From NCBI GenBank assembly GCA_024278375.1, contig JAJRTH010000092.1:6193-70192 (forward strand): DNA of 64,000 bases, given 5' to 3'. Each line of letters begins with the position of its first letter. The stretch's first letter is position 1. This document shows, piece after piece, positions 2,979-44,655 of the stretch. Below the pieces are notes generated by a model. It saw only the letters and a list, made by a program, of their open reading frames with translations. It had not been told where the DNA came from and searched no databases. Position numbers and translations under genes: made by a program. Source of the DNA: an archaeon (GTDB taxonomy: Archaea; Thermoplasmatota; Thermoplasmata; WALJ01).

Positions 2979-2988
2979 GGTGGTAGGT

Positions 2989-14339: not shown

Positions 14340-14358
14340 ATAAATCTGTAAAAACCCA

Positions 14359-15866: not shown

Positions 15867-15908
15867 ATCCTCATCCATACATACACACATGTTAGATAAG
15901 CATTTTCC

Positions 15909-16544
15909 TCATATGTTTCCGACATTCCTTAACTCGACATAGAGCATATTCTCCTTGCCTTCAAACGCCATGAACTTGGGAAAAATGTTCTCAGGATGCT
16001 TCAAATCCTTAGGATTCAGATTAGTATCCACCAGTTCTGGCAGTTCCAGAGGATATGCACCCATATCGCTCATTATTATCGGTGGAGATGTCTCATTCGT
16101 CTCATTGCTTTCGTTTCCAGAACTCACGGGCGGAATTCCGGAAAATTTGGGTCTCTCCGGTAAAGTTATCTTGTCATTCAGAGGTTTCATCGCTTCCTTT
16201 ATCCTATCTATGTCTGGCTTCTCAAAGTGGGCGGGTTTTGGCATCTCCCTCATCGGGTCGAGAGTGATGTTGAGCTCCTTAATCATCGGAAGTGAATCAA
16301 TTGTTATCTCCTTATGCACAAAGCATTTCCCATCTGTGAAATTCAGAGAGATAACATCACCTATAGATGTATTCTCTATTTCCAGATAGTATTTTCCATC
16401 CTCGAACTCAGATACCTTTCCCGTATTTGTGTTCATGTTCTCATAGCCAACGAGAAACCAGCTTGTTGGAACTCCAAATTCATCCTCCACTGTTCCGTAA
16501 ACAGTTAGCATATCGTTGCTTCCTGTCTCTGCTGCTCCCATCAT
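15909..16544 (-). CDS. hypothetical protein between the two beta-helix paralogs
   Basis: 211-aa ORF with no signal peptide and no recognisable motif. Two hairpins lie upstream at about 16575-16625. Confidence 0.4.
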   Translation of the reverse strand: MMGAAETGSNDMLTVYGTVEDEFGVPTSWFLVGYENMNTNTGKVSEFEDGKYYLEIENTSIGDVISLNFTDGKCFVHKEITIDSLPMIKELNITLDPMREMPKPAHFEKPDIDRIKEAMKPLNDKITLPERPKFSGIPPVSSGNESNETNETSPPIIMSDMGAYPLELPELVDTNLNPKDLKHPENIFPKFMAFEGKENMLYVELRNVGNI

Positions 16545-16641
16545 TGGTATTAATGTAGATACAGCATAGTCAGGGCTATTAAGGCCGGTATGGCCTTTTT
16601 CATCATCCCGAAGGATGATTTTCCTTTATTCTCGTTTCCTT

Positions 16642-17154
16642 TCATTTTCTTTTCCTCCTTTTTTGTTTTATTTTGTTATTTTTCATAAATAAAATGATGA
16701 GAGTGATGGTGATTATTAAAGGAATAAATATCGAATCAAATTCAGGAACCGGAGTTGTAGCTGTGAAAACTTCGGTTTTGGAAACATTCATATCCGTGTC
16801 TCTCGGATTGTTGATAAAGGTTAAGTCTGAGTAATTTACAGTTATGTTATAAGGTGTGTAATAAATTATCGTATCGTTATTTCTCCAGTACTCTTTTATA
16901 ACTATCCATCTCACATAACCATTGGAATCCGTGGTGAAATTCTCGTCATAGGTTCCATTCTCGTTGTCTTTTACTCTCACATCAGCTGCCGGTATCGGTG
17001 TTCCTTCAGAATCCTCCACATAAACGTGGAGATACCAGCGGACTGTCAGGTTGCTGAAACTATTTGATATCCACACTCTGCTTTTATTGAATGTTGTATT
17101 TGCAACTATAAAGTATGAATCAGCTATTGAAAAAACAGTATTCACATTTGACAT
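16642..17154 (-). CDS. beta-helix surface protein paralog 2, C-terminal fragment with PEF-CTERM-like anchor
   Basis: Ends ..TATTPVPEFDSIFIPLIITITLIILFMKNNKIKQKRRKRK. It continues the upstream fragment across the (TA)4 tract. Confidence 0.7.
   Translation of the reverse strand: MSNVNTVFSIADSYFIVANTTFNKSRVWISNSFSNLTVRWYLHVYVEDSEGTPIPAADVRVKDNENGTYDENFTTDSNGYVRWIVIKEYWRNNDTIIYYTPYNITVNYSDLTFINNPRDTDMNVSKTEVFTATTPVPEFDSIFIPLIITITLIILFMKNNKIKQKRRKRK
16745..17052 (-). repeat. conserved C-terminal module, copy 2
   Basis: See 14462-14769. Confidence 0.8.
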
Positions 17155-18125
17155 AGAAGTATTATATATATGTATTTTGTAGAAGAGCTCGCAATCCCAT
17201 AATTCGCCCCATCTATTGTAACATTTATTAGAGTTGGTGTAGAACCGTCAGAAGAATAAACGGCATCTTCCCCAGTGCTAAGAATCTCCGTGTTTTTGAT
17301 TATGGGATTGGATGCGTATGTAATATGGATTCCGTTTCCATATCCAACTCCCAAATCCTGTCCAGTATGAGCAATCACATTCCCAACTATCTTCGGGTTG
17401 CTCGGATGAGTGTTTACATTATCCCATCCATCTACCCATATTCCGTATTTGTAATTCCATGTTATCCAGTTATTTTCTATGGTTGCGTTGGACCACCATG
17501 TCGCCATTATTCCCGTGTCATCATTCCATGTTATCGTGTTGTTGGATACGGTGGCATCCGAGCCATAGAGGACGATGCCGTAAGCATTGCGAGAGATAAG
17601 ATTATGGTCGATTATAGCATTATCCGTCTGAATATACAACCCTGACCAAGACACTATTGCAGGAGTTATTCCGCACCTGTGCAGTTCGGAATTCCTCATC
17701 TCGAAATAGCTCCCATCATCCACCCAGAACAGATATGGATAATTTGAATCCGCAGCGGTCATGTTGCTCGCATCTCCTGTTGTCAGATTGTTATTGTCCA
17801 GATCGAGTATATACATAGAGGCTCCTGATTGAACCTCTATGATGTATTGACCTGCAGATGTGCAGTTCATTATCAGGGTTACATTCCTGAAAGTCAGGGT
17901 TGCATTATTGGAAACCGTTAGATTTCCACTCAAAATGATGGTCTCATTGCTTCTTATAGTATCGGTTGTTATGTCCCAGTCCCCGTTTATGTAGATTTTC
18001 GGCTGAGGATAGGTTATTGACCTCGTGCCCTCGGCATAAAAATTCTCTGATAATGAATTCATAGGTATGACTGCAAAAACCAGCAAGACGACGATTATTC
18101 CCATGATTTTTCCTAGCTTCTTCAT
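17142..18125 (-). CDS. beta-helix surface protein paralog 2, N-terminal fragment (signal peptide + PbH1-like repeats)
   Basis: MKKLGKIMGIIVVLLVF.. signal sequence and NNTITWNDDTGI / IENNWITWNY repeats. The 21-nt start region ATGTATGGATGAGGATATGAA is shared with paralog 1. Confidence 0.7.
   Translation of the reverse strand: MKKLGKIMGIIVVLLVFAVIPMNSLSENFYAEGTRSITYPQPKIYINGDWDITTDTIRSNETIILSGNLTVSNNATLTFRNVTLIMNCTSAGQYIIEVQSGASMYILDLDNNNLTTGDASNMTAADSNYPYLFWVDDGSYFEMRNSELHRCGITPAIVSWSGLYIQTDNAIIDHNLISRNAYGIVLYGSDATVSNNTITWNDDTGIMATWWSNATIENNWITWNYKYGIWVDGWDNVNTHPSNPKIVGNVIAHTGQDLGVGYGNGIHITYASNPIIKNTEILSTGEDAVYSSDGSTPTLINVTIDGANYGIASSSTKYIYIILLCQM
17163..17171. repeat. (TA)4T dinucleotide tract at a frame break
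   Basis: tatatatat read directly. Deleting one TA unit fuses ..SSSTKYIY to NTSMSNVNTVF... Confidence 0.95.
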
Positions 18126-18196
18126 ATCCTCATCCATACATATGCATGCCATGGATAAAGTTTTTGCCCGCAAAAAGGAAAAGGGTCTCGAAGAAC

Positions 18197-20530
18197 TCAT
18201 TTCCTCCTTTTCGCCCATATCACCAGAAATGTCGGCAGTATGAATACCGAGAGCAGGAAGCTGAACAGTATCGATATCGTGGATATCTCCCCGAACTGTC
18301 TCAGCGGAGGCATGGAAGACAGCATAAGGACTCCGAACCCGCCCATCGTCGTTGCGGCGGCACTGAATATGGCACTCCCCGTATGCCTGACAGCGGTCCT
18401 GACCGCCTCTTCGGGAGAGGAGCCGTCAAGTTCTTCCAGGAATCGGTGGGTCAGATGTATCGAATATGTTATTCCGAGCCCTATGGTGAGGGCAGTAATT
18501 GTAACGGTCATCATGTTGAAACCAAGCCCGACCAGATACATCATGCCCATGGACCACAGCAGCGCTATGGCCACCGGAAGGGTGGTTATCAGCCCTATTG
18601 CAAGGACCCTTCTGAGATAATAGAATACCGCCGTCAGGATTATGAGAGATATCGCTAGGGTGATCATCAGAGAATTCCACTGGCTGTTCTGCAGGCTCGT
18701 TGTTATGGTGTAGATGAGTATGGAACCTCCCGTGACCACCGTCTCGTATCCCGCATCTCGGAGCGGTTTCGCATCCTCTCTCAGTTCCGAAAGAAGCACA
18801 GCGTGTTCCGAATTGGATTCTGATGTGCCCTTTATGCGCATAAGAGCGCTCTCATACGTGCCGTTTTCCCTGTACAGCACATACTTCGTCCTTTCGTCGT
18901 GTTCGAAGAGCCAGTCATAGATGCTTGCGATATTGGAATCCGGAAGTCCGTCCCCGTCGCTATCTGCAGAAGCGCCAAGCGCCCTGAAACTCGCGTTTTT
19001 TCCGTAAATGTCCCGTATCACCGTTGTTATGTCCTGCGATTCCGAGAGAGAGACATACCTGTCATCCGCCATCTCCGCTCTCGTGTTCTCTATCGCCCTT
19101 AGGAGTTCGGGAGAGGTCAGATCGCCCTTTATTAGGATGTAACTGTCCTCCATAGCCGAACTCTGGAAGTGCTCCATGATATATGTCATGGTTTCTGCGG
19201 AAATGGAGTTTTCGGGAAGGAAATCGCTCTCACTGAAGTTCGTATCCAGGTTTGTGGCACCGTAGAGGGATGCGAGAGATATAACAATCACTATACCCAG
19301 CACCTTGTATGGATGGTGTTCTGCGCCTATCGCACCCACGGCCAGTATCCTGTTGAGCACCAGCAATCCGCTTTCCGTCCTCTTACCTCTCTCTTTTATC
19401 ACTTCCAGACCCTTCTTTTCCCGTCTCCCGTCAATGATGACCTTGGCGGAGGGTATGAAGGTGAGATTGATGATAAAGGCCGAAAATATGCCGAAGGCAT
19501 TCATAATACCGAAGTCTCTGAGCGGAGGGATCGGTGATGATATGTTGGAGAGAAAGGAAACTATGGTGGTCACAGTGGTCAGTATGAGGGCCATGCCAAG
19601 GTGCGCTTCCATGGAGATCGTCGCTTTTTTCACATCCTTTCCGGCCCTTATCTCCTCCCTGTATCTCATTATGGTATGTATTGCGTAGTCTATCCCCAGA
19701 CCGACTATCAGGACGGCAACGGTTGTGCTTATCTGATTGAAGGTCATGTTCGCCATCACACCGAAGCCGTAGGTCCATATTATAGCCATGAAGAGCCCAA
19801 TAAGACCCAGCAAAGTATCAAGAAAGGACCTGAAAATGACCAGAAGAATCAATATGACCAGGATGAACACCACCGGAAGTAGAACCTTCGATGTCTCGTC
19901 CATAGTCTCTTTCATGTCTTCGTCCATCAGTCTCAGGCTCATGACAAGGTATTCGCCGCCACCATCAAAGGAATCGGCAATGCCCTTGATTTTCAGGTGA
20001 ATTCTCACCATCCTGTCCGAGAACTCCTTGTCGCCCTCACCCGCCTTTTGCGTACCGTTTAGATTTATAATCATAAGAGAAGCGCTAGCCTCGGGCACGG
20101 CAGGGTCAAAGTCCTCGGAAATCATCTTCTTCATCTGTTCCTTTGCCGCCGATATTGACGAGGGGTCCATCGAGGCGATCATGGTTTCGAGGTTCGACCC
20201 CATTTCGGAAAAATTCTGTGACATGGAGGAAAACGTCGCATATGCTTCGGTGAATGTCATGTTCACGGTGGTATTTGAATATACAGGCACGGTGCCCAGG
20301 CAGTCATCGATTTTCAAGGACAGGGAAATGCTATATGCGGATAGGTCGGAACTCAGTTTGGACAGGGCCGCAGCGGAACTCTGAAACTCCCTTCCAAGTT
20401 CCATGAACTCTGCGCTATCCATGGGAGTGCCGTATCTGAGTATGTTGTCTATCTCTTCCAGACTCATGTTTTCCAGATGGGATATCTTATCGTCCGCGGA
20501 CATTTCCGAGGAAAACGCCGGAGGGCTCAT
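18197..20530 (-). CDS. RND-superfamily (MMPL/HAE3-like) exporter, TM2-TM12 portion
   Basis: 777 aa with two 5-6-helix bundles separated by a large loop and a GLGIDYAIH motif. It lacks TM1, which lies in the upstream same-frame ORF. Confidence 0.75.
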   Translation of the reverse strand: MSPPAFSSEMSADDKISHLENMSLEEIDNILRYGTPMDSAEFMELGREFQSSAAALSKLSSDLSAYSISLSLKIDDCLGTVPVYSNTTVNMTFTEAYATFSSMSQNFSEMGSNLETMIASMDPSSISAAKEQMKKMISEDFDPAVPEASASLMIINLNGTQKAGEGDKEFSDRMVRIHLKIKGIADSFDGGGEYLVMSLRLMDEDMKETMDETSKVLLPVVFILVILILLVIFRSFLDTLLGLIGLFMAIIWTYGFGVMANMTFNQISTTVAVLIVGLGIDYAIHTIMRYREEIRAGKDVKKATISMEAHLGMALILTTVTTIVSFLSNISSPIPPLRDFGIMNAFGIFSAFIINLTFIPSAKVIIDGRREKKGLEVIKERGKRTESGLLVLNRILAVGAIGAEHHPYKVLGIVIVISLASLYGATNLDTNFSESDFLPENSISAETMTYIMEHFQSSAMEDSYILIKGDLTSPELLRAIENTRAEMADDRYVSLSESQDITTVIRDIYGKNASFRALGASADSDGDGLPDSNIASIYDWLFEHDERTKYVLYRENGTYESALMRIKGTSESNSEHAVLLSELREDAKPLRDAGYETVVTGGSILIYTITTSLQNSQWNSLMITLAISLIILTAVFYYLRRVLAIGLITTLPVAIALLWSMGMMYLVGLGFNMMTVTITALTIGLGITYSIHLTHRFLEELDGSSPEEAVRTAVRHTGSAIFSAAATTMGGFGVLMLSSMPPLRQFGEISTISILFSFLLSVFILPTFLVIWAKRRK

Positions 20531-33915: not shown

Positions 33916-34170
33916 GTGATGATCTTCAATGTGATGCTGGGATTGCTGCTTCCGATATATATCTTCTTTCTGGGGAGTACTATAGCCGCTTACAGAACTA
34001 CGGGCGATAGGAGGATTCTGCTGGCATCGTTGATTTTCCTGTTTCTCCTGATAAAGAGCATATTTGTTGTATTCCGGCTACTGTCCGGTGAATCTCCCCA
34101 GACTCTTCTTCTACTGATCGATGTCATGGGAATAGTACTCGTTATACTGTTATGGAAGTGGAGAGGATGA
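33916..34170 (+). CDS. small membrane protein
   Basis: 84 aa with 3 hydrophobic helices. Overlaps the following regulator gene. Confidence 0.4.
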   Translation: MMIFNVMLGLLLPIYIFFLGSTIAAYRTTGDRRILLASLIFLFLLIKSIFVVFRLLSGESPQTLLLLIDVMGIVLVILLWKWRG

Positions 34171-34694
34171 AGGAGCTGGAGAGCCGGAGGCGAATATATC
34201 AGTACATATTCGAAAACCCGGGTGTGCATTATCGGGAGATAGCGAGAAACCTCAACATACCCTTCGGCTCTCTGGATTACCATCTCTCGTATCTTTCCAG
34301 GCACGGAATGGTAACGATTCTAAAGGATGGCGGGTACACCAGATACTATGCCCGAAAGGATGTGGACGCAAGAAAGAAGAACATACTTTCGGTGCTGAGA
34401 CACGAACTTCCCAGAGCGATAGTCCTATTTTTGATGAAGAACGGCGGAGCGAGACATAAAGAGATAACGGAGGCCTTCAATGTATCGGGCGCCACGATAT
34501 CTTACCATCTGAAAAGGATGCTTGAAAAAGGCATACTGCTTGTTGAGGGCAGCGGAAGGGAGCACTTCTACACTGTCAGAGACCCCGATATGGTAGCGGA
34601 CGTTCTGATAACATATAGAAGGAGTTTTGGAGACAGACTTGTGGATGCTTTCGTGCGGTCGTGGATTCTCGAAAAGAAAGAAGAAAGGGGTTAG
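34152..34694 (+). CDS. ArsR-type transcriptional regulator with two winged-helix domains
   Basis: Two wHTH segments: YQYIFENPGVHYREIARNLNIPFGSLDYHLSYL and HKEITEAFNVSGATISYHLKRM. Confidence 0.65.
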   Translation: MEVERMKELESRRRIYQYIFENPGVHYREIARNLNIPFGSLDYHLSYLSRHGMVTILKDGGYTRYYARKDVDARKKNILSVLRHELPRAIVLFLMKNGGARHKEITEAFNVSGATISYHLKRMLEKGILLVEGSGREHFYTVRDPDMVADVLITYRRSFGDRLVDAFVRSWILEKKEERG

Positions 34695-36343
34695 AGAAGG
34701 TCTAGCATTCTCGCGAGGGCTCTTTCTCCCCTGTAATCCGGGAGCATTATCGGAGACCTTCTTTCGGGTTTTATTTTTGCCTTCTTCAGCTCGTTTTCGT
34801 AGAGTGCCACATGTTTCAGGCTCAGCTTCTTCGGTTTTCCGCGCTTCTTGGCCCACTTTGCAGCGCTTATTCCAGCTCTCCTTCCGAAAACATTGAAGTC
34901 CAGCAGGGAATTCCCCATCAATCGGTTCTTTCCGTGTACGCCGCCCTCGACCTCTCCGCCGGCAAACAGACCGGGAACAGAGGTCTGAGCACTCACATCT
35001 ATCTCGACACCGCCGTTCTGATAGTGTAATGTGGGAAATACGAGTATCGGGTCCTTTGTCATGTCTATTCCGAACCTCTTATACATGCGGTACATGGCAT
35101 CCAGATCTTTTTCTATGGTTCCTTCGCCGCTTATCTCCTCTATCATGGGCGAATCCAGCCATATTCCCATCATACCCGTGGGGGTCTCGACACCTTTGTT
35201 CCTGCCGTAGCATTCCCTTATGAAAGCAGCGGCCTCGACATCTCTGGGCTCCATCGGGAACACGAAGAGTTCTCCGTCCCTGTTCACGGGCTGTGCGCCC
35301 ATCCCGCGGACCTTTTCGGTTATCAGCAGGCCAACAATCTGCTCGGGATATGCGGCACCCGTCGGATGATACTGCACCGTATCCAGGTCCCTCAGCTTCG
35401 CTCCGGCCCTGTAGGCCATCACTAAGCCATCGGCAGTTGCACCGTAGTGATTCGTCGTGGGGAATCCCTGTATGTGCAGCCTGCCAAATCCGCCTGTTGC
35501 CAGAACGGTTGCCTTTGCCCTCACAACATAATACTGTTCCGTTTCCATGTTGAACAGCACGGCTCCGGCAACATTCCCTTCATCATCTTTCAACAGCTCT
35601 ATTGCAGGACTGAACTCCAGCACGGGTATCTCCCTGTTCCTGAACTCATCCCTCAGAACCCTCATTATCTCCATTCCTGTGTAGTCTTTGGCGGAATGCA
35701 GTCTGAATCTGGACGTGCCTCCTCCTGCTCTCTCGACATAGCTTCCGTCGGGATTTCTGTCATACTGCACGCCCAGCTCCTCGTGCCATTTCAGTATGAA
35801 AGGCGCATCTTTCACGAGCGCTTCCACGAGTTCGGGTTTGTTCGCGAAATGCCCTCCGCCTATTACATCAAGGTAATGTAAGGCAGGACTGTCCTCCTCT
35901 CTGTCGGCAGCCTGTATGCCGCCCTGTGCCATCATGGAGTTGGCATCGCCGTGTCTGAGCTTGGTTACCATGAGGATGTTCTCCGCAGAGATTCCGTTGT
36001 CATTGGCCCACAGTGCGGCTACGGTGCCGGCACCACCACCTCCTATTATGAGGAGGTCAACATCGTAATCTATGGTTTTGAGGTCAATGTCTTTCTCGCT
36101 TATCAGAGGATATGCTTCGAGGAGGTCAACAACTTCGTGAGGCGCAAGATCTCCCTTGTTCGGTCCGACCTTAACAGGTCTTTTTTTATCGGGCTTGTAA
36201 TCCGGGTGATACTTGTTCAGCACATCCTCTCTCGCATCCATGCTCATCGCTTCGAAGCTTTTTTTCATCCTTTCAGTCCTAGTCTTCTCCACCTTCTCTA
36301 TGGATTCCCTCATTTCTTCCGTATAACCGCCTATTAGTTTCAC
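34691..36343 (-). CDS. SdhA/FrdA-like FAD flavoprotein (fumarate-reductase family) with N-terminal extension
   Basis: 550 aa: LLIIGGGGAGTVAAL, MAQGGIQAA, QYHPTG, GLFAGGEV. Confidence 0.7.
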   Translation of the reverse strand: MKLIGGYTEEMRESIEKVEKTRTERMKKSFEAMSMDAREDVLNKYHPDYKPDKKRPVKVGPNKGDLAPHEVVDLLEAYPLISEKDIDLKTIDYDVDLLIIGGGGAGTVAALWANDNGISAENILMVTKLRHGDANSMMAQGGIQAADREEDSPALHYLDVIGGGHFANKPELVEALVKDAPFILKWHEELGVQYDRNPDGSYVERAGGGTSRFRLHSAKDYTGMEIMRVLRDEFRNREIPVLEFSPAIELLKDDEGNVAGAVLFNMETEQYYVVRAKATVLATGGFGRLHIQGFPTTNHYGATADGLVMAYRAGAKLRDLDTVQYHPTGAAYPEQIVGLLITEKVRGMGAQPVNRDGELFVFPMEPRDVEAAAFIRECYGRNKGVETPTGMMGIWLDSPMIEEISGEGTIEKDLDAMYRMYKRFGIDMTKDPILVFPTLHYQNGGVEIDVSAQTSVPGLFAGGEVEGGVHGKNRLMGNSLLDFNVFGRRAGISAAKWAKKRGKPKKLSLKHVALYENELKKAKIKPERRSPIMLPDYRGERALARMLDLL

Positions 36344-37050
36344 TGGGTCACCTCCCCTCTCTGTATCTTTTCGATGGTTCTCGAGGTATATTCCTCCTTG
36401 AGCTTTTCCATGCTCATCTTCTTGAGTTTTTCGATTTCCTTGTCGAACTTGCCCGCATCTATTTCCTCAATCCTTTTGAGCAGATGCTCCGGAATCTGCA
36501 GATAGTACTTTCCGTATATCCTTCTCGCGAGCTGAGCTACGTGGTAATGTGTTATTTCCGCGGGACACCTTGCAGCACATAGACCGCACTGGATGCAGTC
36601 GAACGAGAGCTTAGAGACCTCACCGTAATCTCCTCTTATCGCGGCCTGAATGTAGTACATCACATCGAGCTCCTGCGGGCAAGATTTCGTGCAGGTATTG
36701 CAGGAAACACACCTGTTTATCTCTGGGTAATACTCGGAGAGAACGTTCTTTTCCGGATTAATCATGTCAATATCGTATTCCTTCCTGTTCGCAGGGACAA
36801 AAGGAAGCTGTGCGAGATACATGCCATCCTCGGCCGTCGTCTGACATGCCAGAGCGGTCTGGAACTTGTACTCTCCTTTATTTCTGTATACGGTCGCACA
36901 GGCACCGCAGAAACCTGCCCTGCATCCCGAACCTCTTATGAATCTGTATCCCACATATTCCATAGCCTTCATTATGGTGAGGCCGAACGGGACCTCGTAT
37001 GCTTTTCCCATTATATACACAGTTATCATTTTTTCTTTGTTTTCAGACAT
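36340..37050 (-). CDS. SdhB/FrdB-like iron-sulfur protein (2Fe-2S + 2x 4Fe-4S motifs)
   Basis: CRAGFCGAC, CVSCNTCTKSCP and CIQCGLCAARCP. 4-nt overlap with the flavoprotein gene. Confidence 0.7.
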   Translation of the reverse strand: MSENKEKMITVYIMGKAYEVPFGLTIMKAMEYVGYRFIRGSGCRAGFCGACATVYRNKGEYKFQTALACQTTAEDGMYLAQLPFVPANRKEYDIDMINPEKNVLSEYYPEINRCVSCNTCTKSCPQELDVMYYIQAAIRGDYGEVSKLSFDCIQCGLCAARCPAEITHYHVAQLARRIYGKYYLQIPEHLLKRIEEIDAGKFDKEIEKLKKMSMEKLKEEYTSRTIEKIQRGEVTQ

Positions 37051-37052
37051 TT

Positions 37053-37931
37053 TTAACCCTCCAGAAGCCCGCGCTCCTCAAGAAGAGGCCTCGGGTCTAT
37101 ATGGTTTTCATCTAAACCGGCCTTATCCTCGAGTCCCATGGCAAGAGCCATGAGCTGTGTGAAATAGAGGACTGGCATCTCGATGAATCCGTGATATTTC
37201 TTTTTAACCTCCATCTGCCTGTCTTCGAGATTGAAATCACAGAGAGGACATGAAAGGATGATAGCATCTCCGCCAGCTTCTCTTGCGGATTCCACTATCT
37301 TTCTGGTGCGCTCCAAGACGGCATCCTTGTTCGTTATGGTCTGGTATGAGCCGCAGCATTCGGTCTTGTACTCTGTGTCTATTATATCCGCCCCCATGGC
37401 CTTCATTATTTCTTCCATTATTCTGGGATCACGCGGGTCGTCAATGGAAACATCCTCCGGCCGGACCAGGGTGCATCCGTAATAAGGGACGAGTTTCAGA
37501 CCTGTGAGCGGCTTTCTGACCTTCTTGCCGATCTCCTTGATTCCTACTTCCCCGAGTATCTGCAGCAGATGCAGGGGTTCCACCCCGCCTCCGTAGTCCT
37601 CCTCCGTATCCATGAACTCGTTTATTGTCTTCAATTTCTCCGGATCGTTTATTACTAGATTGTTTGCCTGCCTAAGCGTGTTATAGCACATGGAGCAGAA
37701 GGATACCACCCTCTTCTCCCCCATCTCCGATTCCACGACCACCAGGTTCCTTATCGGAGCAAGCTGATGCATGAGATCGTCCGTTGCAAGGGAGTACACG
37801 GTCCCGCAGCAGTTCCATCTCGGCATCTCGATGAATTCTATTCCGAGTTCCTTCCCGACGGCGAGACCCGACATTTCGAAGTTCTTTGCGGTCGCTTTGA
37901 GGGTACATCCCGGAAAATACGGTATTTTCAT
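37053..37931 (-). CDS. hdrB: heterodisulfide reductase subunit B-like (CCG domains)
   Basis: 292 aa with two CCG-type Cys clusters (PRWNCCGT, TECCGSY, PLCD). Confidence 0.8.
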   Translation of the reverse strand: MKIPYFPGCTLKATAKNFEMSGLAVGKELGIEFIEMPRWNCCGTVYSLATDDLMHQLAPIRNLVVVESEMGEKRVVSFCSMCYNTLRQANNLVINDPEKLKTINEFMDTEEDYGGGVEPLHLLQILGEVGIKEIGKKVRKPLTGLKLVPYYGCTLVRPEDVSIDDPRDPRIMEEIMKAMGADIIDTEYKTECCGSYQTITNKDAVLERTRKIVESAREAGGDAIILSCPLCDFNLEDRQMEVKKKYHGFIEMPVLYFTQLMALAMGLEDKAGLDENHIDPRPLLEERGLLEG

Positions 37932-37935
37932 CCAT

Positions 37936-38343
37936 TCACCCCGTCAGTTTCCTCATAGCCGACACGAGCGCTATCGGCGGCAGTTCTTCGACATCATCTT
38001 CCGCAATCGACTCTATGCGCAAAACATCGATGTTTTTCCTTAGTATGTGGAGCCTGAGAGCTTCCATCACAGAGGCTATGTCTATACCTTTCGGGCACTC
38101 CACCGTGCAGTTAAAACACTCTGCGCATATCCAGGGCGTGTTGCCCTCGAGTATCTTTTCCGTGGCGCCTATCTGTATGAACTTCATAACCTGATTCGGC
38201 AGGTAATCCATATCGTCCGCCATAGGGCATGAGGACGAGCATTTCCCGCACTGATAGCATAGCATTACAGGTTGTCCGCTTATTTCCTCTACCTCTTTCA
38301 TCAAAGCCAGATTCTTGTCATTGTATCCTATTCTCAATTCCAT
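37936..38343 (-). CDS. hdrC: heterodisulfide reductase subunit C-like (2x 4Fe-4S)
   Basis: CYQCGKCSSSCP and CAECFNCTVECP. Confidence 0.8.
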   Translation of the reverse strand: MELRIGYNDKNLALMKEVEEISGQPVMLCYQCGKCSSSCPMADDMDYLPNQVMKFIQIGATEKILEGNTPWICAECFNCTVECPKGIDIASVMEALRLHILRKNIDVLRIESIAEDDVEELPPIALVSAMRKLTG

Positions 38344-38789
38344 CCCTCCATTATATTCTCGGCCATCTCGGCCGCCTCTTCGATCCCTTTTTCCACTTCC
38401 GGGGAGGGTTTTTCCGTGAATTCTGTGGGTGGAAGGATCTCTATTCCTATTATTCTGAGCTCTGGAAGGCGGAGACCGGATTTTTCCGCCAGTTCAAGGG
38501 CCTGGGAGATGCTCACGTCATGGATTGTGGAGCCGTGCCCTTTATTCGAGAGAGTATCCTTCTCTATGAGCCTCACGGTCCCGGGGCTCTCTCCGATTAT
38601 GGCATCCACGATAACCGCTCTTTCGTAATCCATCAGTTCTTCCAGGAGCCTCATTCCGCCGACATACGATTCCTTAATCTCAAAATCTTTCGGGAATTCC
38701 TTTCCTTTCTCTTTCAGTTTCCTCACGGCCAGTATGCCCGCGCTGTCATCACCGAGTATCGGATTACCCAGACCTATTATCACATTCAA
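38334..38789 (-). CDS. NiFe-hydrogenase maturation endopeptidase
   Basis: 151 aa with IIGLGNPILGDDSAG and DAI..G..PG. Overlaps the end of mvhA. Confidence 0.8.
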   Translation of the reverse strand: MNVIIGLGNPILGDDSAGILAVRKLKEKGKEFPKDFEIKESYVGGMRLLEELMDYERAVIVDAIIGESPGTVRLIEKDTLSNKGHGSTIHDVSISQALELAEKSGLRLPELRIIGIEILPPTEFTEKPSPEVEKGIEEAAEMAENIMEGWN

Positions 38790-40242
38790 GTCTCCTCAGC
38801 TCCTTTATCTTTCTTCCTCTGTGGTCTATTATCTCCACTTCCATCGGCATGGTTCCGGGAAGCGTGTGCGTTGCACATGCGAGACAGGGGTCATAGGCTC
38901 TGAAAGCCATCTCTATGGTGTTCAGTATTCCATCATTTACCTTACCTTTCTTTATGACGCTCTTCGCAGCCTTTCTCACGCTCATACATATGCCACCGTT
39001 GTTGTGCGTCGTGGCCACTATTATGTTGACCTTCTCGGTGATTCCCTCTGGATTTGCGAAGTAATGATGTATGAGAACTCCTCTCGGTGCCTCCACACAT
39101 CCTACGCCTTCTCCGGGCACACCTATCTCCGCCCTGATATCTCTGTTGGTTATGCTTCTGTCCTTCACGAGTTGGAGTCCGTGCTCGGCCGCATAGAGGG
39201 TCTCTATTAGCCTTGTCCAGTGGTATGCCATGGTATGGTGCACCGGAGAACCTCCGAAAAACTCATAGAATTCTTTGAACTCTTCATTGGCCACCGGCGT
39301 GGTGAGACCTTCCGCTACATTCATCCTCGCAAGCGGCCCCACTCTGTATATTCCCGAATCCTTTCCGTCCTTAACTCCGTTCCATCCGACCTTTTTCAGG
39401 TACGGGAATTTTATGAAGGTCCAGGGTTCGACATGCTCCGCTATGTGCTCGAGGTATTCCGAGGGGTGGAATTTGGCGAACTCGTTGCCGTCGGGGTCGA
39501 TGACCCTCAGGTCTCCGTCGTAGAGGTTCAGCATGTTGTTCTTGTCCACGGTTCCCATGTAGTAGGTCCTGTGGATATATCCCTCGGAAAGTATGAGGTC
39601 CTTGTAGGCGGGGACTATCTTATCTTTGAGAAGAGCCAGGGATTCCTTGACGAACTCAAGGGTCTCCTCCATCTTCTTCTCCATCTCCTGTCTCTCTTCA
39701 TCCGTTATTCCCTTCGAGACTCCTCCAGGAAGGCCGAATACAGAGTGTATCGCCTTTCCTCCTATAATCTCCTGGATGTCGGTCATATTCTTCATGTTCC
39801 TGAGAACTTTCTTAACCAGGTCCTCTCCGACTTTGTCTATCATTCCCAGGACATTCCTGCTAGCCCTGGGAGCATCCGGCCCCATCACGAAATCCGGTGC
39901 AGCAAGGACATAGAAGTGGAGCAGATGGTCATGGACAGTGAAGGCATCGTAGTAAAGCTCCCTTATCTTCCTGGCCGTTTCTGTGGGCTTCGTTTTGAAC
40001 ACCGCATCAATGGCTTTTGTGGATGCCATCACGTGGGCTCCCGGGCAGACACCGCATATTCTCGGCGTGATTCTGGCAAGCTCTTCCACCGCCCTTCCGA
40101 CACAGAAGCGCTCGAATCCCTTGAATTCAACGGTCTGGAAATAGGCATCCTCCACATTTCCCGTTTCATCCAGGAATATGGATATCTTAGCCTCACCCTC
40201 CAGCCTGGTAACCGGATTTATCGTTATCTCCTTGGTATTCAT
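38764..40242 (-). CDS. mvhA: [NiFe] hydrogenase large subunit, Mvh/F420-non-reducing type
   Basis: N-terminal RICGVCPGAH and C-terminal DPCLACATH ligand motifs plus a cleavable C-terminal extension. ATG 40242 follows AAGGAGG. The ORF track extends to 40281. Confidence 0.85.
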   Translation of the reverse strand: MNTKEITINPVTRLEGEAKISIFLDETGNVEDAYFQTVEFKGFERFCVGRAVEELARITPRICGVCPGAHVMASTKAIDAVFKTKPTETARKIRELYYDAFTVHDHLLHFYVLAAPDFVMGPDAPRASRNVLGMIDKVGEDLVKKVLRNMKNMTDIQEIIGGKAIHSVFGLPGGVSKGITDEERQEMEKKMEETLEFVKESLALLKDKIVPAYKDLILSEGYIHRTYYMGTVDKNNMLNLYDGDLRVIDPDGNEFAKFHPSEYLEHIAEHVEPWTFIKFPYLKKVGWNGVKDGKDSGIYRVGPLARMNVAEGLTTPVANEEFKEFYEFFGGSPVHHTMAYHWTRLIETLYAAEHGLQLVKDRSITNRDIRAEIGVPGEGVGCVEAPRGVLIHHYFANPEGITEKVNIIVATTHNNGGICMSVRKAAKSVIKKGKVNDGILNTIEMAFRAYDPCLACATHTLPGTMPMEVEIIDHRGRKIKELRRLECDNRSG

Positions 40243-40277
40243 CTTAAACCTCCTTTCGGATGATTCCTGCCGGACCA

Positions 40278-41249
40278 TCATTCATCGTCCAACCTCCTGT
40301 TGATTATCGCAGAGGGAAGGGTGAACCTGTAAAAGGTTCCCGTCGGGTCCGCTATTCTCTCGAGAAGTTCACGCAGTCCTTCTTCTCCGAGTTCAACCTC
40401 TTTGTCCGCAGCAAGAAGCGATGTTATGGCCGAAAGCATCTTGGAACCCTGGTCCTTTATTCCGGGAGGGGGGCCAAAACATCCCCTGCACGGCATATTG
40501 GCATTTATGCAACGGGTCCCGCATCCAGATCTGGTGGCAGGTCCCATGCAGATTATGCCCTGCGCCAGGAAACAAAGATTCGGGTCAGCCTCCTTCTCAT
40601 GGGGCCTGTAGAATCCGTCTATGACCATTTTCTCGGGCTTCTCCCTCTTACACTCGTCGCAGAGCGCTCTGGTTCCGGCTATGACTGTTCCCTTGGGAGG
40701 CAGCTCCTCACCCTTGGAATAGGCCACGGCCACGCCTATGAGGTCTCTTATCTGGGATTCCACAGGAGGACATCCGGGAACATAATAGTCCATGTCCACG
40801 AGATTGTCATGGGAATGGCCGAGATTGTAGAGTTTTGGCAGGGTGAGGATCTTTCCGTCCACCTTCGACCTCTCAGAAGGCCATTCTCCTTTGTCGGTGC
40901 TTATGCTCTCGTATGCCGTTCTCATCACCTCATCCCGATCTGGACTCAGATTGACAAGGCCTGGAATGCCGCCGAAACAGGCGCACGAGCCGAAAGCGAC
41001 CATGACCTTCGATTTTTTCCTGAGTAATTTCAGTATTTCCTCCTGTTCGGATGTCCTTATGGAGCCGTGGCTCAGGGTTATATCTATGTAGTCGATGGCC
41101 TCCAGATCCTCGTGTTTTGGGTCCGCTCCGGTCGGCCAGTACACTATCTCTGCGATTTTCGCAAGATCAGCGAAATCCTCACCTATGTCGGCGATTGCCA
41201 CATCGCATCCGGAACATGAGCCGAGCGGTGCAATTGCAATCCTTATCAT
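40278..41249 (-). CDS. mvhG: [NiFe] hydrogenase small subunit, Mvh type
   Basis: GSCSGCD, FGSCACFGG, and distal Cys clusters (CDECKR, CMGPATRSGCG..C). Confidence 0.8.
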   Translation of the reverse strand: MIRIAIAPLGSCSGCDVAIADIGEDFADLAKIAEIVYWPTGADPKHEDLEAIDYIDITLSHGSIRTSEQEEILKLLRKKSKVMVAFGSCACFGGIPGLVNLSPDRDEVMRTAYESISTDKGEWPSERSKVDGKILTLPKLYNLGHSHDNLVDMDYYVPGCPPVESQIRDLIGVAVAYSKGEELPPKGTVIAGTRALCDECKREKPEKMVIDGFYRPHEKEADPNLCFLAQGIICMGPATRSGCGTRCINANMPCRGCFGPPPGIKDQGSKMLSAITSLLAADKEVELGEEGLRELLERIADPTGTFYRFTLPSAIINRRLDDE

Positions 41250-41674
41250 CTCTCACCCTCCTTCATTCTCGGAACAGGGCCGAGTTTTCTGACTTCATCT
41301 ATGAAGTCGTCCATGACCTCCGCAAACTTCTTTCCCTCGCTTGCAGAGACCCACTCGAGCCTCAATCTTCTGGGGTTTATTCCCATCTGCTCAAGCATTC
41401 TCTCCATGACCACCTTTCTCTTGTACGTCTTGAAGTTTCCGTTCACATAGTGGCAGTCAGTCGGCGTATGGCACCCGCCTATGAAAACACCGTCCGCACC
41501 CTCTCTGAATGCCTCGAGAACGAACTGCGGGTCCACCCTTCCGGAGCACATGACCCTTATGGGCACTACATTTGGCGGATATTTCAGCCTGCTGACGCCC
41601 GCAAGGTCGGCACCGCTGTATGCACACCAGTTACACAGAAACGCAACAATCCTGGGTTCAAAACTCTTCCTCAC
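41246..41674 (-). CDS. mvhD: MvhD-like hydrogenase iron-sulfur subunit
   Basis: 142 aa: IVAFLCNWCAYSGADLAG..MCSGRV..GC..DCHY. Confidence 0.85.
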   Translation of the reverse strand: MRKSFEPRIVAFLCNWCAYSGADLAGVSRLKYPPNVVPIRVMCSGRVDPQFVLEAFREGADGVFIGGCHTPTDCHYVNGNFKTYKRKVVMERMLEQMGINPRRLRLEWVSASEGKKFAEVMDDFIDEVRKLGPVPRMKEGER

Positions 41675-41675
41675 T

Positions 41676-43625
41676 CTATCCCTCCTGGAGTATGGAGCGT
41701 ATCATATCGAAAATCTGCTCCTGTGTCCCATTCTTGAGGGTCATGGCTCCTGACGGACATGCCGCAGCGCAGGAACCGCACCCCTCGCACATTACCGCAT
41801 TGACCTCCGCATGACCGGCAACGAGGCTTATCGCACCATAGGGACATACGGATATGCAGACCTCACACCCGGAGCACAGGTCTTCGTCGACCTGAGCCAC
41901 GGCGGGTTCATGTTCCAGATATTCCTGTCCGATTACGGAGAGCGCCTTGCTGGCGGCCGCACTTGCCTGTGCAACCGTATCTGGTATGTCCTTTGGGGCC
42001 TGGGCAGCACCTGCCAGGAAAAACCCGGGGGTGGAGCTTTCTACCGGTCTCAGTTTCGGATGAACCTCTTTAAGGAACTCATTCTCGTCGGCAGCGCAGT
42101 TTAGGACATCTATTATCTCGCCGGTACCTTTTCCCGGTACCATCGCCATGGCAAGGACCACAAGATCGGCCTCTATCTCTATCTTCTCGCCCAGAAGCGT
42201 ATCGACACCCCATACGACGAGCTTGTCCCCTTTTCTGAACACCTTGGAAGGTTTGCCCCGAAGATAGACTATTCTGTCCTCCTCCATGGCACGATGTATG
42301 AACTCCTCGTATCCTTTTCCCGCTGCCCTTATATCAATATAGAATATGTAGGCTTCACCGTCCTCCACATGGTGTTTGTAAAGCATGGCATGCTTTGCGG
42401 TGTACATGCAGCATATCTTCGAGCAGTATGGGAGGTGGTTGTCAGGGTCCCTCGAACCGGCACACTGGATGAAGACGACCCTTTTCGGTACTTTTCCATC
42501 GGAAGGCCTTCTGACCTCACCCTTGGTCGGCCCGGAAGCCGAAAGCATCCTTTCGAACTCAAGCCCGTTTATTATGTCCTCGTCTTCTCCGTACCCGTAT
42601 TCTCCGAGCATCTTTTTCGGATACAGGTCATATCCCGTGGCCACTATTATGGCACCCACCTCCTCTTCTATGATCTCAGGGTGAACATCGTAATCTATGG
42701 CCTCGACATCGCAGACCTCAATACATTTCCCGCATTTTATCGGGTCCAGACCCAGACATTTGTCCATGTCAAGCGTATAGGTGGATGGCACCGCCTGAGG
42801 GAACGGAAGATATATGGCCTTCCTGATGCTAAGACCCATATCGAACTCGTTCGAAACCACCACCGGACAGACATCCTCGCAGTCAGTGCATAAATTGCAC
42901 TTCTCCGGGTCGACATATCTTGGCTTTTGCTTTATTTTAACCTTGAAGTTGCCGACATATCCAGATATGTCAATGACCTCGCTGTATGTCATAAGTCTGA
43001 TCCTCGGATTTCTGGAAACGGCAACCATCTTCGGGGTCAATATGCACTGGGAACAGTCAAGAGTCGGGAAAGTTTCCGATAGCTGTGCCATATGGCCCCC
43101 TATGCTCGTCTCCTTTTCCACAAGAATTACATCATAACCGGCGTCCGCCACGTCCAGAGCGGCCTGAATTCCGGCTATTCCCCCACCTATAACCAGGACC
43201 CTCGGGGTGACTCCGACCTTCACAGGTTCTAGCGGTTCGTTTCCGACGACCTTTCTGACCATGCTCCTCGTTATCTTTATTGCCTTTTCCGTCCCTTTTT
43301 CCATGTCGTCGTGTACCCAGCTGCACTGTTCCCTTATGTTGGCTATTTCTACGTCATAGGGATTGAGCCCCACATCCTCGGCAGCGCTCCTGAAAGTCGC
43401 TTCATGCATGCCGGGTGAGCAGGCCGCTATTATGACCTTGTCCAGCCTGTGCTCCTTTATGGCCTCCTGAACCAGGCTCTGCCCGGGTCCGGAACACATG
43501 TACTTGTAAGTGGTGCTGAAAACCACATCCTTGTCCCTACCCAGGGCTTCGGCGACCTTTTCCACATCAACCGTGCCAGCGATATTGAAACCGCAGTGGC
43601 ATACGAAAACTCCTACTCTTGCCAC
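41676..43625 (-). CDS. hdrA: heterodisulfide reductase subunit A-like flavoprotein
   Basis: 649 aa: VCHCG N-terminus, VIGGGIAGIQAALD, and several CxxCxxCxxxCP motifs. GTG start after GAGGAGG. Confidence 0.85.
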   Translation of the reverse strand: MARVGVFVCHCGFNIAGTVDVEKVAEALGRDKDVVFSTTYKYMCSGPGQSLVQEAIKEHRLDKVIIAACSPGMHEATFRSAAEDVGLNPYDVEIANIREQCSWVHDDMEKGTEKAIKITRSMVRKVVGNEPLEPVKVGVTPRVLVIGGGIAGIQAALDVADAGYDVILVEKETSIGGHMAQLSETFPTLDCSQCILTPKMVAVSRNPRIRLMTYSEVIDISGYVGNFKVKIKQKPRYVDPEKCNLCTDCEDVCPVVVSNEFDMGLSIRKAIYLPFPQAVPSTYTLDMDKCLGLDPIKCGKCIEVCDVEAIDYDVHPEIIEEEVGAIIVATGYDLYPKKMLGEYGYGEDEDIINGLEFERMLSASGPTKGEVRRPSDGKVPKRVVFIQCAGSRDPDNHLPYCSKICCMYTAKHAMLYKHHVEDGEAYIFYIDIRAAGKGYEEFIHRAMEEDRIVYLRGKPSKVFRKGDKLVVWGVDTLLGEKIEIEADLVVLAMAMVPGKGTGEIIDVLNCAADENEFLKEVHPKLRPVESSTPGFFLAGAAQAPKDIPDTVAQASAAASKALSVIGQEYLEHEPAVAQVDEDLCSGCEVCISVCPYGAISLVAGHAEVNAVMCEGCGSCAAACPSGAMTLKNGTQEQIFDMIRSILQEG

Positions 43626-44397
43626 AGTTTTTCCTCCTCGTAAAATCCTTTGAAAACGAGCCTTTCACAGCGGAGCAAAGCAGCAGAAAAAATCTCTGAT
43701 TTCGCTCCATTTATCCTTACTCTTTTCGGGTGGGCGACCTTTTCTGTATTTGAAATACAAGTTCCAATTCGGCTTTTTATTGCCATTTTAACGCCCGACA
43801 GCGAGGGAAACTGGTTGCATTATTTAAGAGTATCGCACTCCGACTTAGTAAAAACTGGAAAAACTTGCTATCCGAGGATGTTTCTGTCCCATTCATTCAG
43901 GCAAGAGGTGTACGGGCCGTTTGCAGTGATGTCGTAGTTTTCCGGCACGTTGTAGCTTTATTCTTCATAGTTTGTCAATGTGTCGTTAGGTGTTCCGAGA
44001 TTTGAAACAAAATCTTGAAAAGGTAACATAGAACTCATCAGGATTCCTCCGAATGTTTATCAATAAATAATATCAATTGGAATCTAATTTCTTTTTAAAT
44101 GAGTTTTCATATCCTTCTGCTATCTCTAGATTATATTCTAAATAATGCATACAAAGTTTATTGCCGTTTTTAGTGTTATATCTATGCGAAATATTTTTCA
44201 TTCATTCTGAATATAGTCACATAAGTCAATATCTTTATGGAAGACACTCCTTTTTTAAATAATATGAATTCTCGAAAGGTTTTTCTGTTAAATACAGTAA
44301 AATAGTCTTCCCTAATTTCGATTTCTTTTGGATACCCTAAAAATAAATTGAAGGTATTGAAATCGAAATAAATTAATATCTAATTTTGGAGTTAAAC

Positions 44398-44583
44398 TTA
44401 TATCTGGAATCTCAATTTTTTCTTGTTTATCTGGGAATATGAGAGACTATGGCATCTACTACGGTTTCTATCGCATTTTTTTATGACATTGGAGAACAAT
44501 CTCAATAATGAGGTTACTGCATTCATTATATCTTTAATGATATAAAATACACCTGCGAGAGGACCGTAAACTGCATTCTTCAA
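44398..44583 (-). CDS. hypothetical, downstream part of a TAG-interrupted low-GC ORF
   Basis: Same frame as 44656-45150. The frame is open from the TAG (44656-44658) through to 44398. Confidence 0.3.
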   Translation of the reverse strand: MKNAVYGPLAGVFYIIKDIMNAVTSLLRLFSNVIKKCDRNRSRCHSLSYSQINKKKLRFQI

Positions 44584-44655
44584 ATCATCAATCTGGGCCT
44601 GTGAAAGTTCTCCTTGTTCTTCATATGCAGCTCTGGCACGACCTATTGCATATAA

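Follow-up and report, generated by a model that had tools for sequence, protein, structure and literature searches.

Nine tightly packed genes on the minus strand of an archaeal DNA stretch of 64,000 nucleotides (contig JAJRTH010000092.1 of assembly GCA_024278375.1, positions 6,193 to 70,192; referred to below as the window) probably encode one soluble, H2-dependent, flavin-based electron-bifurcating fumarate reductase. We put the probability of this reading at about 0.55. The initial annotation, made from the sequence alone, had suggested an H2-driven reductase linked to heterodisulfide reductase (Hdr) proteins, and this suggestion is supported by comparative evidence on gene content, cofactor motifs, active-site conservation, gene linkage and co-evolution.

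According to this reading, the [NiFe]-hydrogenase MvhAG, matured by the co-encoded endopeptidase, would oxidise H2, and the electrons would pass through the [2Fe-2S] cluster of MvhD to the flavin adenine dinucleotide (FAD) of HdrA, where the pair would be split. One electron would travel uphill through the ferredoxin domains of HdrA to ferredoxin. The other would take the downhill branch, from the [4Fe-4S] clusters of HdrC via the CCG clusters of HdrB to an FrdB-like iron-sulfur (Fe-S) subunit carrying two [4Fe-4S] clusters and one 2Fe-2S cluster, and would end at the non-covalent FAD of a flavoprotein that would reduce fumarate to succinate. Fumarate would take the place that is held in methanogens by the heterodisulfide of coenzymes M and B (CoM-S-S-CoB). 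On textbook potentials (H+/H2, -414 mV; ferredoxin, ~-500 mV; fumarate/succinate, ~+30 mV; CoM-S-S-CoB, ~-140 mV), fumarate is the better driving acceptor of the two. A 2-oxoacid:ferredoxin oxidoreductase (OFOR) of the same cluster probably consumes the reduced ferredoxin in many relatives, or would supply it if the machine ran in reverse. From sequence comparison we infer that the proteins form a physical complex, that electrons pass by way of HdrB, that fumarate is the substrate and that electrons flow in this direction.

The nine open reading frames (ORFs) run from position 43625 to 34691, in the order and at the coordinates that the initial annotation had given. With domains assigned by Pfam and NCBIfam profile scans, they are as follows.

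41676-43625, minus strand: hdrA, bifurcating subunit with FAD and multiple [4Fe-4S] clusters, 649 aa, GTG start (NCBIfam HdrA2, 824 bits; PDB match)
41246-41674, minus strand: mvhD, [2Fe-2S] connector between hydrogenase and HdrA, 142 aa (Pfam FlpD, 180 bits; NCBIfam VhuD, 121 bits)
40278-41249, minus strand: mvhG, [NiFe]-hydrogenase small subunit, 323 aa (Pfam Oxidored_q6; NCBIfam VhuG, 195 bits)
38764-40281, minus strand: mvhA, [NiFe]-hydrogenase large subunit, 505 aa as the longest ORF (Pfam NiFeSe_Hases; NCBIfam VhuA, 412 bits)
38334-38789, minus strand: hydrogenase maturation endopeptidase, 151 aa, TTG start (Pfam HycI; TIGR00072, 97.6 bits against a cut-off of 47)
37936-38343, minus strand: hdrC-like gene, two [4Fe-4S] clusters, 135 aa (Pfam Fer4_8 and Fer4_17; NCBIfam QmoC N-terminal, 73 bits, and HdrC, 65 bits)
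37053-37931, minus strand: hdrB-like gene, two CCG domains, 292 aa (two Pfam CCG stretches; NCBIfam HdrB, 166 bits, and MFR SdhE, 159.5 bits)
36340-37050, minus strand: FrdB/SdhB-like Fe-S subunit, 236 aa, one 2Fe-2S and two [4Fe-4S] motifs, no CCG domain (cysteine spacing; hhalign)
34691-36343, minus strand: fumarate-reductase-type flavoprotein, 550 aa (Pfam FAD_binding_2, residues 96-480, 233 bits; AlphaFold2 model)

The fumarate-reductase-type pair

The QYHPTG and MAQGGIQAA motifs on which the flavoprotein was first recognised are both present, and alignment with FrdA, SdhA and NadB of E. coli K-12 allowed its active site to be mapped residue by residue. H232, T244, E245, R287, H355 and R390 of FrdA correspond to H326, T342, E343, R367, H440 and R474 of the flavoprotein and are invariant in its family; the set comprises the two histidines and two arginines of dicarboxylate binding and a Thr-Glu pair. 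The histidine of covalent FAD attachment is replaced by N135, and the FAD is predicted to be non-covalent. At the position of FrdA E49 and SdhA Q50 the flavoprotein has a glutamine, as SdhA does. The position of NadB E121 is occupied by glycine in the flavoprotein (G207) and in all aligned family members, a substitution by which the explicit mapping on the three E. coli proteins rules against an identity as NadB.

The AlphaFold2 monomer model (mean per-residue confidence, pLDDT, 77; predicted template-modelling score, pTM, 0.81) has E. coli FrdA as its top structural match, with Sdh1 of M. smegmatis and flavocytochrome c3 also among the best. Succ_DH_flav_C, the C-terminal helical domain, gave no Pfam match in the protein. 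An N-terminal extension of 95 residues, likewise without a Pfam match, is highly conserved and confidently modelled. Among NCBIfam models TfrA scores best (326 bits), with SdhA/FrdA (281) and NadB (275) close behind and all three under their cut-offs; for TfrA the cut-off is 718, and positions 6-422 of the 546 in the profile are matched while 423-546 are not. In a neighbour-joining tree, the flavoprotein family is monophyletic in 100 of 100 bootstraps and is joined by four sister clusters (42-48% identity). Next come proteins that score best on the NCBIfam models TfrA (555-690 bits) or PRK07803; FrdA and SdhA of E. coli branch off at a greater distance, with NadB as the outgroup. The kept catalytic residues, the FrdA-like model and the place in the tree beside TfrA-like proteins all group the flavoprotein with a dicarboxylate-reducing family and not with an unrelated one.

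The partner protein has the 2Fe-2S motif (C43-x4-C48-x2-C51...C69) and the two 4Fe-4S motifs (C114xxC117xxC120xxxC124P and C152xxC155xxC158xxxC162P) that had been noticed at the outset, and Pfam finds in it a 2Fe-2S and a dicluster domain. This spacing is of the SdhB/FrdB type, with the addition of a fourth cysteine in the third cluster, and all 12 cysteines are kept in 80 of 80 related loci. The profile of the Fe-S family retrieved only generic ferredoxin domains from PDB sequences; the relation to FrdB is visible with hhalign alone, which aligns the family with E. coli FrdB at a probability of 93%, colinearly across both domains. In one relative (P0122), the Fe-S protein and the flavoprotein are naturally fused. 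Because of the catalytic residues, the relation to FrdB and the position in the tree, we regard the pair as a distinct, anchor-less, TfrA-related enzyme of the predicted fumarate-reductase type.

One may ask whether the flavoprotein acts on something else, be it L-aspartate (as NadB does), another enoate or a 2-substituted succinate, or whether two enzymes are merely co-transcribed here. The closely spaced TfrA, SdhA/FrdA and NadB scores, all below cut-off, the family-unique N-terminal extension and the missing C-terminal domain would be in keeping with a different substrate. This is nevertheless very improbable in view of the absence of the NadB glutamate, the full dicarboxylate-binding set, a tree that places the family with TfrA-like proteins and leaves NadB outside, and a dedicated, invariant Fe-S partner that can even be fused to the flavoprotein. 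The linkage to hdr genes across more than 10 phyla and the OFOR and isocitrate dehydrogenase neighbours described below speak against another substrate and against a lack of coupling alike.

HdrC and HdrB

The Fe-S subunit gave no Pfam CCG match, as the initial annotation had pointed out, and the CCG domains are carried by the separate HdrB. In HdrC, all 8 cluster cysteines are kept in 68 of 68 related loci. HdrB contains two CX31-39CCX35-36CXXC motifs, both intact, and all 10 of their cysteines are kept wherever the protein could be aligned (74 loci); two non-cubane [4Fe-4S] clusters are predicted. It matches the HdrB chains of the PDB entries for the H2:CoB-CoM heterodisulfide,ferredoxin reductase with 145 bits. 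As QmoC is the best NCBIfam match of HdrC, an analogy with AprAB and Qmo was also considered, and was dropped: the models that the flavoprotein matches are those of Tfr, Sdh and Frd, and the Fe-S protein contains a 2Fe-2S domain, unlike AprB, which is a simple ferredoxin with two [4Fe-4S] clusters.

The invariance of the 10 CCG cysteines also bears on a thiol-mediated form of coupling, in which MvhADG-HdrABC would reduce a low-molecular-weight or protein disulfide at HdrB and the reductase pair would re-oxidise the resulting thiol with fumarate at an HdrB-type CCG site, as in thiol:fumarate reductase (Tfr), so that a diffusible or tethered thiol would replace a continuous Fe-S wire. TfrB of methanogens, as Heim et al. 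1998 is quoted in PMC9723677, is a fusion of 2Fe-2S, dicluster and CCG parts, which match the N-terminus of the Fe-S protein, HdrC and HdrB of the window, respectively. In addition, Methanofastidiosia, which are methanogens, carry hdrC-hdrB-FeS-flavoprotein alone, and a cycle of Tfr and Hdr-Mvh with CoM and CoB thiols has been proposed for Asgard archaea (PMC9723677). We nonetheless hold this route to be unlikely. With no CCG domain on the Fe-S subunit, both half-reactions would have to share one HdrB, and a free intermediate seems unneeded; no gene of thiol-cofactor biosynthesis occurs in the window; and the close co-evolution of HdrBC with the pair, described below, suits a physical complex.

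The hydrogenase and HdrA

The donor side of the proposed bifurcating fumarate reductase is complete in its motifs. HdrA aligns over its full length with the HdrA chain of PDB 5ODC, a structurally solved bifurcating HdrA (741 bits, residues 3-645 on 5-649). MvhA has both Ni-Fe cysteine motifs, RICGVCPGAH near the N-terminus and DPCLACATH near the C-terminus, and a tail of 33 residues beyond the latter is the expected substrate of the maturation protease. No flx-like match that would indicate an FlxABC module for NAD(P)H was found in the window; mvhG, mvhA and the protease gene stand in its place. A Pfam scan of ~50 larger ORFs of the window found no Mcr or Mtr domain, which agrees with the earlier remark that the window has no methanogenesis marker.

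Organisation of the operon

The genes lie almost end to end. A single nucleotide separates hdrA from mvhD, mvhD and mvhG as well as mvhG and mvhA overlap by 4 nt, mvhA overlaps the protease gene by 26 nt and the protease gene overlaps hdrC by 10 nt. Gaps of 4 nt (hdrC/hdrB) and 2 nt (hdrB/Fe-S gene) follow, and the Fe-S and flavoprotein genes overlap by 4 nt. The overlaps of 4-26 nt reported initially were thus matched, and the gaps, for which up to 35 nt had been allowed, do not exceed 4 nt. The GTG start of hdrA at 43625 and its Shine-Dalgarno sequence had been recognised correctly as well, with GAGGAGG lying at 43639-43633, 7 nt 5' of the start codon. The region in front of hdrA can be described as follows.

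43626-44655, minus strand: presumed promoter region, AT-rich and non-coding, 5' of hdrA, including the GAGGAGG ribosome-binding site at 43633-43639

This region contains no minus-strand ORF of at least 80 aa, the sole ORF of that size being on the plus strand (43650-43937), and the G+C content falls to 0.42 in the 44-46 kb bin of the window. At the opposite end, a regulator gene with two helix-turn-helix (HTH) domains (34152-34694, plus strand; HVO_0163 N-terminal HTH and HTH_24) runs convergently towards the flavoprotein gene, with an overlap of 4 nt at the 3' end of the latter; this regulator might act on the nine-gene operon. Because of the tiny junctions, the AT-rich non-coding stretch at the 5' end and the convergent HTH gene at the 3' end, the nine genes look like one transcription unit, apparently with translational coupling. 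The Sdh-like pair does not appear to form a unit of its own, as it follows hdrB immediately and stands with hdrC-hdrB and hdrA-mvhD in related loci (84 examined).

Distribution and gene linkage

The flavoprotein has thousands of homologues at ~65-96% identity, and its highly conserved family keeps to at least 63%. More than 8000 close homologues were scored, and the family, which includes archaea and bacteria, collapses to one cluster at 50% identity. The exact sequence from the window was not on record in our look-up; its nearest genome match is an uncultured archaeon (95%), followed by Thermoplasmata (85-88%), which makes the source of the window an archaeon related to Thermoplasmata. With a bacterial family member as the query, no named cultured organism was found among the best 120 matches, all of which were metagenome-assembled genomes (MAGs). 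In the sister clades, a 542-aa flavoprotein at 45% identity (P0128/P0285) comes from a 2.59-Mb contig and bears the record name 'FAD-binding protein [Prochlorococcus sp. MIT 1201]', an unexpected host.

We surveyed 84 related loci by tblastn, blastp and precomputed Pfam annotation. The archaeal loci come from Thermoplasmata, DHVE2, Methanomassiliicoccales, Ca. Mnemosynella, Asgard archaea and Methanofastidiosia, and the bacterial loci from Bipolaricaulota/Acetothermia, Aerophobetes, Aminicenantes, Atribacteria, Caldisericota, KSB1, TA06, Sumerlaeota, Anaerolineales and MAGs labelled 'Eubacteriales' or 'Thermotogae'. In all 84 the Fe-S gene stands next to the flavoprotein gene, hdrC-hdrB lies directly 5' of the pair in most, and hdrA and mvhD, separate or fused, are nearly always present. 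This linkage of the pair to hdr genes spans more than 10 phyla. One Asgard locus (L081) repeats the gene order of the window exactly, with a four-subunit OFOR ahead of it, and one Methanofastidiosia locus is reduced to hdrC-hdrB-FeS-flavoprotein alone.

The electron input is variable. An mvhG-mvhA module is present in 19-24 of the loci and a Flx-type module (an FrhB-like protein, a Fer4_22 protein and a NAD_binding_1/DHODB protein) in 9; the remaining loci have neither. The donor modules are interchangeable and the acceptor pair is constant. A sister clade at 44% identity extends this picture: in a marine Gammaproteobacteria MAG (L088:9366-12891) a NuoF-like gene (Complex1_51K, NADH_4Fe-4S) comes after the Fe-S and flavoprotein genes and hdr genes are missing, an arrangement suggestive of an NADH-linked form of this reductase module with three subunits.

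Several loci show further variations in their Hdr genes. A Thermoplasmata MAG (L060:559-11644) has, on one strand, mvhD-mvhG-mvhA-protease-hdrC-hdrB followed by hdrA-mvhD-hdrC-hdrB-FeS-flavoprotein; hydrogenase-linked and reductase-linked HdrBC thus occur side by side in one organism. In DHVE2/Aciduliprofundum-type MAGs (L009-L021), which have no hydrogenase, a second HdrA-like protein of ~850 aa (Pyr_redox and Fer4; e.g. L021:5123-7672) is encoded between hdrA and mvhD, and a 358-aa Fer4 protein (e.g. L021:8099-9175) between mvhD and the Fe-S gene. In the Asgard locus with the gene order of the window, an Asgardarchaeia MAG, hdrA was left uncalled (L081:2624-4591), and ORF extraction gives a 526-aa piece at 71% identity. 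The break is probably an in-frame UGA for selenocysteine, a residue that has been reported in Asgard HdrA (PMC9723677).

Co-evolution of the modules

For the 49 loci that have all five genes for HdrA, HdrB, HdrC, the Fe-S protein and the flavoprotein, pairwise-distance matrices were compared. The correlation is 0.90 between flavoprotein and Fe-S protein, 0.86 between HdrB and HdrC and 0.71-0.76 between these two pairs, and it drops to 0.27-0.45 between any of the four proteins and HdrA. Because of this difference, HdrBC appear to stay with the reductase pair when HdrA and the donor module are swapped. The idea put forward in the initial annotation, that HdrB(C) serves as the CCG partner of the Sdh-like pair, finds support both in these correlations and in the Methanofastidiosia locus that has only hdrC-hdrB-FeS-flavoprotein.

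The closest relatives of the window cluster (L002-L008 and L045) have flavoproteins that are 85-87% identical to that of the window and Fe-S proteins that are 72-81% identical, with identities of 54-57% for hdrB and 43-49% for hdrC. They also have another type of HdrA (an hdrA-mvhD fusion, 48% identity), kor genes on the 5' side and no hydrogenase. The lineage of the window seems to have exchanged all genes upstream of the Fe-S gene.

Neighbouring oxidoreductase genes and the direction of electron flow

OFOR genes occur on the same strand in 41 of the 84 loci. In six Bipolaricaulota/'Thermotogae' MAGs (L029, L030, L036, L046, L054 and L069), korC lies directly 5' of hdrA and korA-korB directly 3' of the flavoprotein gene; with the OFOR genes split around the cluster, the Mvh-Hdr-reductase genes therefore sit inside a kor operon. 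In an Acetothermia MAG (L087:11686-13980), the flavoprotein gene is followed by a gene for a 374-aa Fer4 and CCG protein (HdrD/GlpC-like) and an isocitrate dehydrogenase gene.

A neighbouring OFOR suits reductive carboxylation and the oxidative breakdown of 2-oxoacids equally well, and the same machine could in principle be run backwards. Succinate, formed for example from glutamate through 2-oxoglutarate and succinyl-CoA, would then be oxidised to fumarate, and its high-potential electrons would be confurcated with those of reduced ferredoxin at HdrA and released as H2. For a fermenting or syntrophic archaeon, this would be a soluble bypass of the energetically difficult oxidation of succinate. 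In the cultured Asgard archaeon MK-D1, Mvh-Hdr has been read as an H2-evolving, confurcating enzyme and an Sdh flavoprotein is among the conserved Asgard catabolic genes (PMC7015854); the H2-evolving direction of Mvh-Hdr is favoured in Asgard papers (PMC7015854, PMC9723677), and H2-coupled succinate oxidation was proposed for the SdhA gene that adjoins Hdr genes in Culexarchaeia (PMC9723716). The SdhA-like glutamine at the position of FrdA E49 and SdhA Q50 points the same way. Energetics do not: on textbook potentials the mean donor potential, ~-235 mV, is positive of that of H+/H2 even at 1 Pa H2 (~-265 mV), and H2 could therefore be evolved only at very low fumarate or with highly reduced ferredoxin. 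The related cluster of Pseudoclostridium thermosuccinogenes, moreover, belongs to a succinate-producing pathway (PMC7282089). We consider the reverse direction a serious candidate but the less probable one.

Several observations weigh against the H2-dependent bifurcating fumarate reductase that we favour. Domain scans found no OFOR and no recognisable gene of the tricarboxylic acid (TCA) cycle in the 64-kb window, and kor, acl and fumarate hydratase genes are likewise absent from it. All scores on the HdrABC, Vhu and TfrAB equivalogs of NCBIfam stay under the curated cut-offs (HdrA2, 824 against 1100; HdrB, 166 against 345; HdrC, 65 against 160; VhuA, 412 against 800). The fully intact CCG motifs of HdrB suit a real thiol or disulfide substrate at least as well as a pure electron relay. 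The low identity of hdrB and hdrC beside flavoproteins at 85-87% implies that the modules were reshuffled and not strictly co-inherited. Finally, the kinship with the enzymes of Ca. Endoriftia persephone and P. thermosuccinogenes, to which we return below, is read from gene order alone.

Other genes of the window

Domain scans of the genes that flank the operon in the window yielded no hint as to metabolism. On the plus strand, two aldehyde dehydrogenase genes follow each other in tandem, 1 nt apart, at 1434-2978 and 2980-4608 (Aldedh, 451 and 311 bits). A low-G+C stretch (0.40-0.43) at 14000-18200 encodes NosD/beta-helix proteins beside a gene for an MMPL transporter (18197-20530), and the end of the window (59774-63988) encodes a surface protein of 1404 aa with NosD, beta-helix and Big_5 domains. 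Both NosD/beta-helix stretches are probably cell-surface genes.

Significance

In Asgard archaea, Mvh-Hdr clusters rank with the most strongly transcribed genes of energy metabolism, and their acceptor has been called 'an unidentified heterodisulfide compound' (PMC11291895). It is conceivable, and we propose this tentatively, that in non-methanogenic archaea (Asgard archaea among them) and several uncultured phyla of bacteria, MvhADG-HdrABC has as its long-sought high-potential acceptor not a heterodisulfide but fumarate, reached through a direct Fe-S wire from HdrBC to a dedicated two-subunit reductase. With fumarate as the acceptor, flavin-based bifurcation in these organisms would make sense and could be tested, H2 metabolism would be coupled directly to the C4 branch of the TCA cycle, and HdrA-based bifurcation would gain a third class of acceptors. 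Together with an interleaved OFOR, such an H2-driven module would reduce fumarate to succinate and provide bifurcated ferredoxin for the carboxylation of succinyl-CoA; in the reverse direction it would allow fermenters to oxidise succinate to H2 without membrane-based reverse electron transport. The flavoprotein family is very large and has no characterised member, and the widespread module of which it is part offers a testable answer to the question of the Mvh-Hdr acceptor outside methanogens.

Comparison with known systems

All six subunits of the methanogen MvhADG-HdrABC complex (H2:CoB-CoM heterodisulfide,ferredoxin reductase, group 3c; PDB 5ODC and 8RVU) are present in the window with their cofactor motifs intact. 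The window differs in having two extra co-translated fumarate-reductase genes, a short HdrC (135 aa) and no methanogenesis genes. Mvh-Hdr was annotated without a link to fumarate reductase in two Asgard papers and one Acetothermia paper (PMC11291895, PMC7015854, PMC6092417), and thiol:fumarate reductase was named as a possible re-oxidiser of thiols with the gene linkage left unmentioned (PMC9723677, PMC8163825). A paper on Culexarchaeia noted that an SdhA gene adjoins Hdr genes (PMC9723716).

With TfrAB of Methanothermobacter, the predicted enzyme would share solubility, non-covalent FAD, a 2Fe-2S and two [4Fe-4S] clusters and CCG chemistry, and TfrA-like proteins are its nearest outgroup. However, TfrB is one polypeptide with SdhB-like clusters and two CCG domains, a set that is split in the window over the Fe-S protein, HdrC and HdrB, and the flavoprotein has no counterpart to the C-terminal region of the TfrA model and adds a new extension at the N-terminus. 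Type E succinate:quinone reductases and the MFR enzymes, SdhABE(F), likewise combine an SdhA/SdhB-like pair with a CCG subunit, and HdrB of the window scores about equally on the SdhE and HdrB models. In contrast to these, the window enzyme gives no sign of membrane association or quinone use, lacks the covalent-FAD histidine, has a fourth cysteine that makes the third cluster [4Fe-4S], and is accompanied by HdrA, MvhD and a hydrogenase. The quinone-linked SdhABCD and FrdABCD enzymes are set apart by their covalent-FAD histidine, Succ_DH_flav_C domain and anchor genes, none of which is found in the operon, and NadB is a stand-alone flavoprotein with Glu121, where the window flavoprotein has glycine there and an obligatory Fe-S partner. 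The five-subunit NADH fumarate reductase of Hydrogenobacter was considered as a possible precedent containing HdrBC and was set aside; the subunit sizes given for Aquifex do not fit a simple HdrB.

The closest parallels are the Flx-Hdr-linked clusters with a 'novel fumarate reductase' or 'tfrAB' that have been described, as hypotheses, in Ca. Endoriftia persephone, Thioflavicoccus mobilis and P. thermosuccinogenes. In tubeworm symbionts, Rubin-Blum et al. 2019 reported a cluster of frdB, frdA, hdrC, hdrB, korDABC, hdrA and flxDCBA (PMC6315080, Text S1 note 3 and Table S1), and proposed that the flxABCD version in Endoriftia and Thioflavicoccus bifurcates electrons to 2-oxoglutarate:ferredoxin oxidoreductase (OGOR) and fumarate reductase (PMC6315080, Text S1). 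In Endoriftia the cluster was found to be co-expressed in an operon-like manner, with tfrAB the exception (Mitchell et al. 2024, PMC11636981), and the same proposal was repeated in a 2026 survey (PMC13147460). In the succinate producer P. thermosuccinogenes, a 'succinate operon' combines a fumarate reductase encoded by two genes with Flx-Hdr and fumarate hydratase (Koendjbiharie et al. 2020, PMC7282089); the idea of a bifurcating fumarate reductase in this organism is credited there to a 2019 preprint by Koendjbiharie and van Kranenburg. Eight of our related loci (L022, L028, L034, L066, L067, L047, L011 and L026) match the Endoriftia cluster in their set of kor and flx genes. Our literature search found no published description of a hydrogenase-linked version.

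The Flx-Hdr clusters and the window have in common an anchor-less, two-gene Fe-S protein and flavoprotein among genes for HdrA, HdrB, HdrC and MvhD or FlxD, and the proposed logic of bifurcation to ferredoxin and fumarate. They differ in the input, which in the window is the MvhAG [NiFe]-hydrogenase with its protease (H2) and not FlxABC (NAD(P)H), and in the archaeal host. The concept has been known since 2019 as a hypothesis for the NADH-dependent Flx version, and the H2-driven hydrogenase version in an archaeon is the part that our analysis adds.

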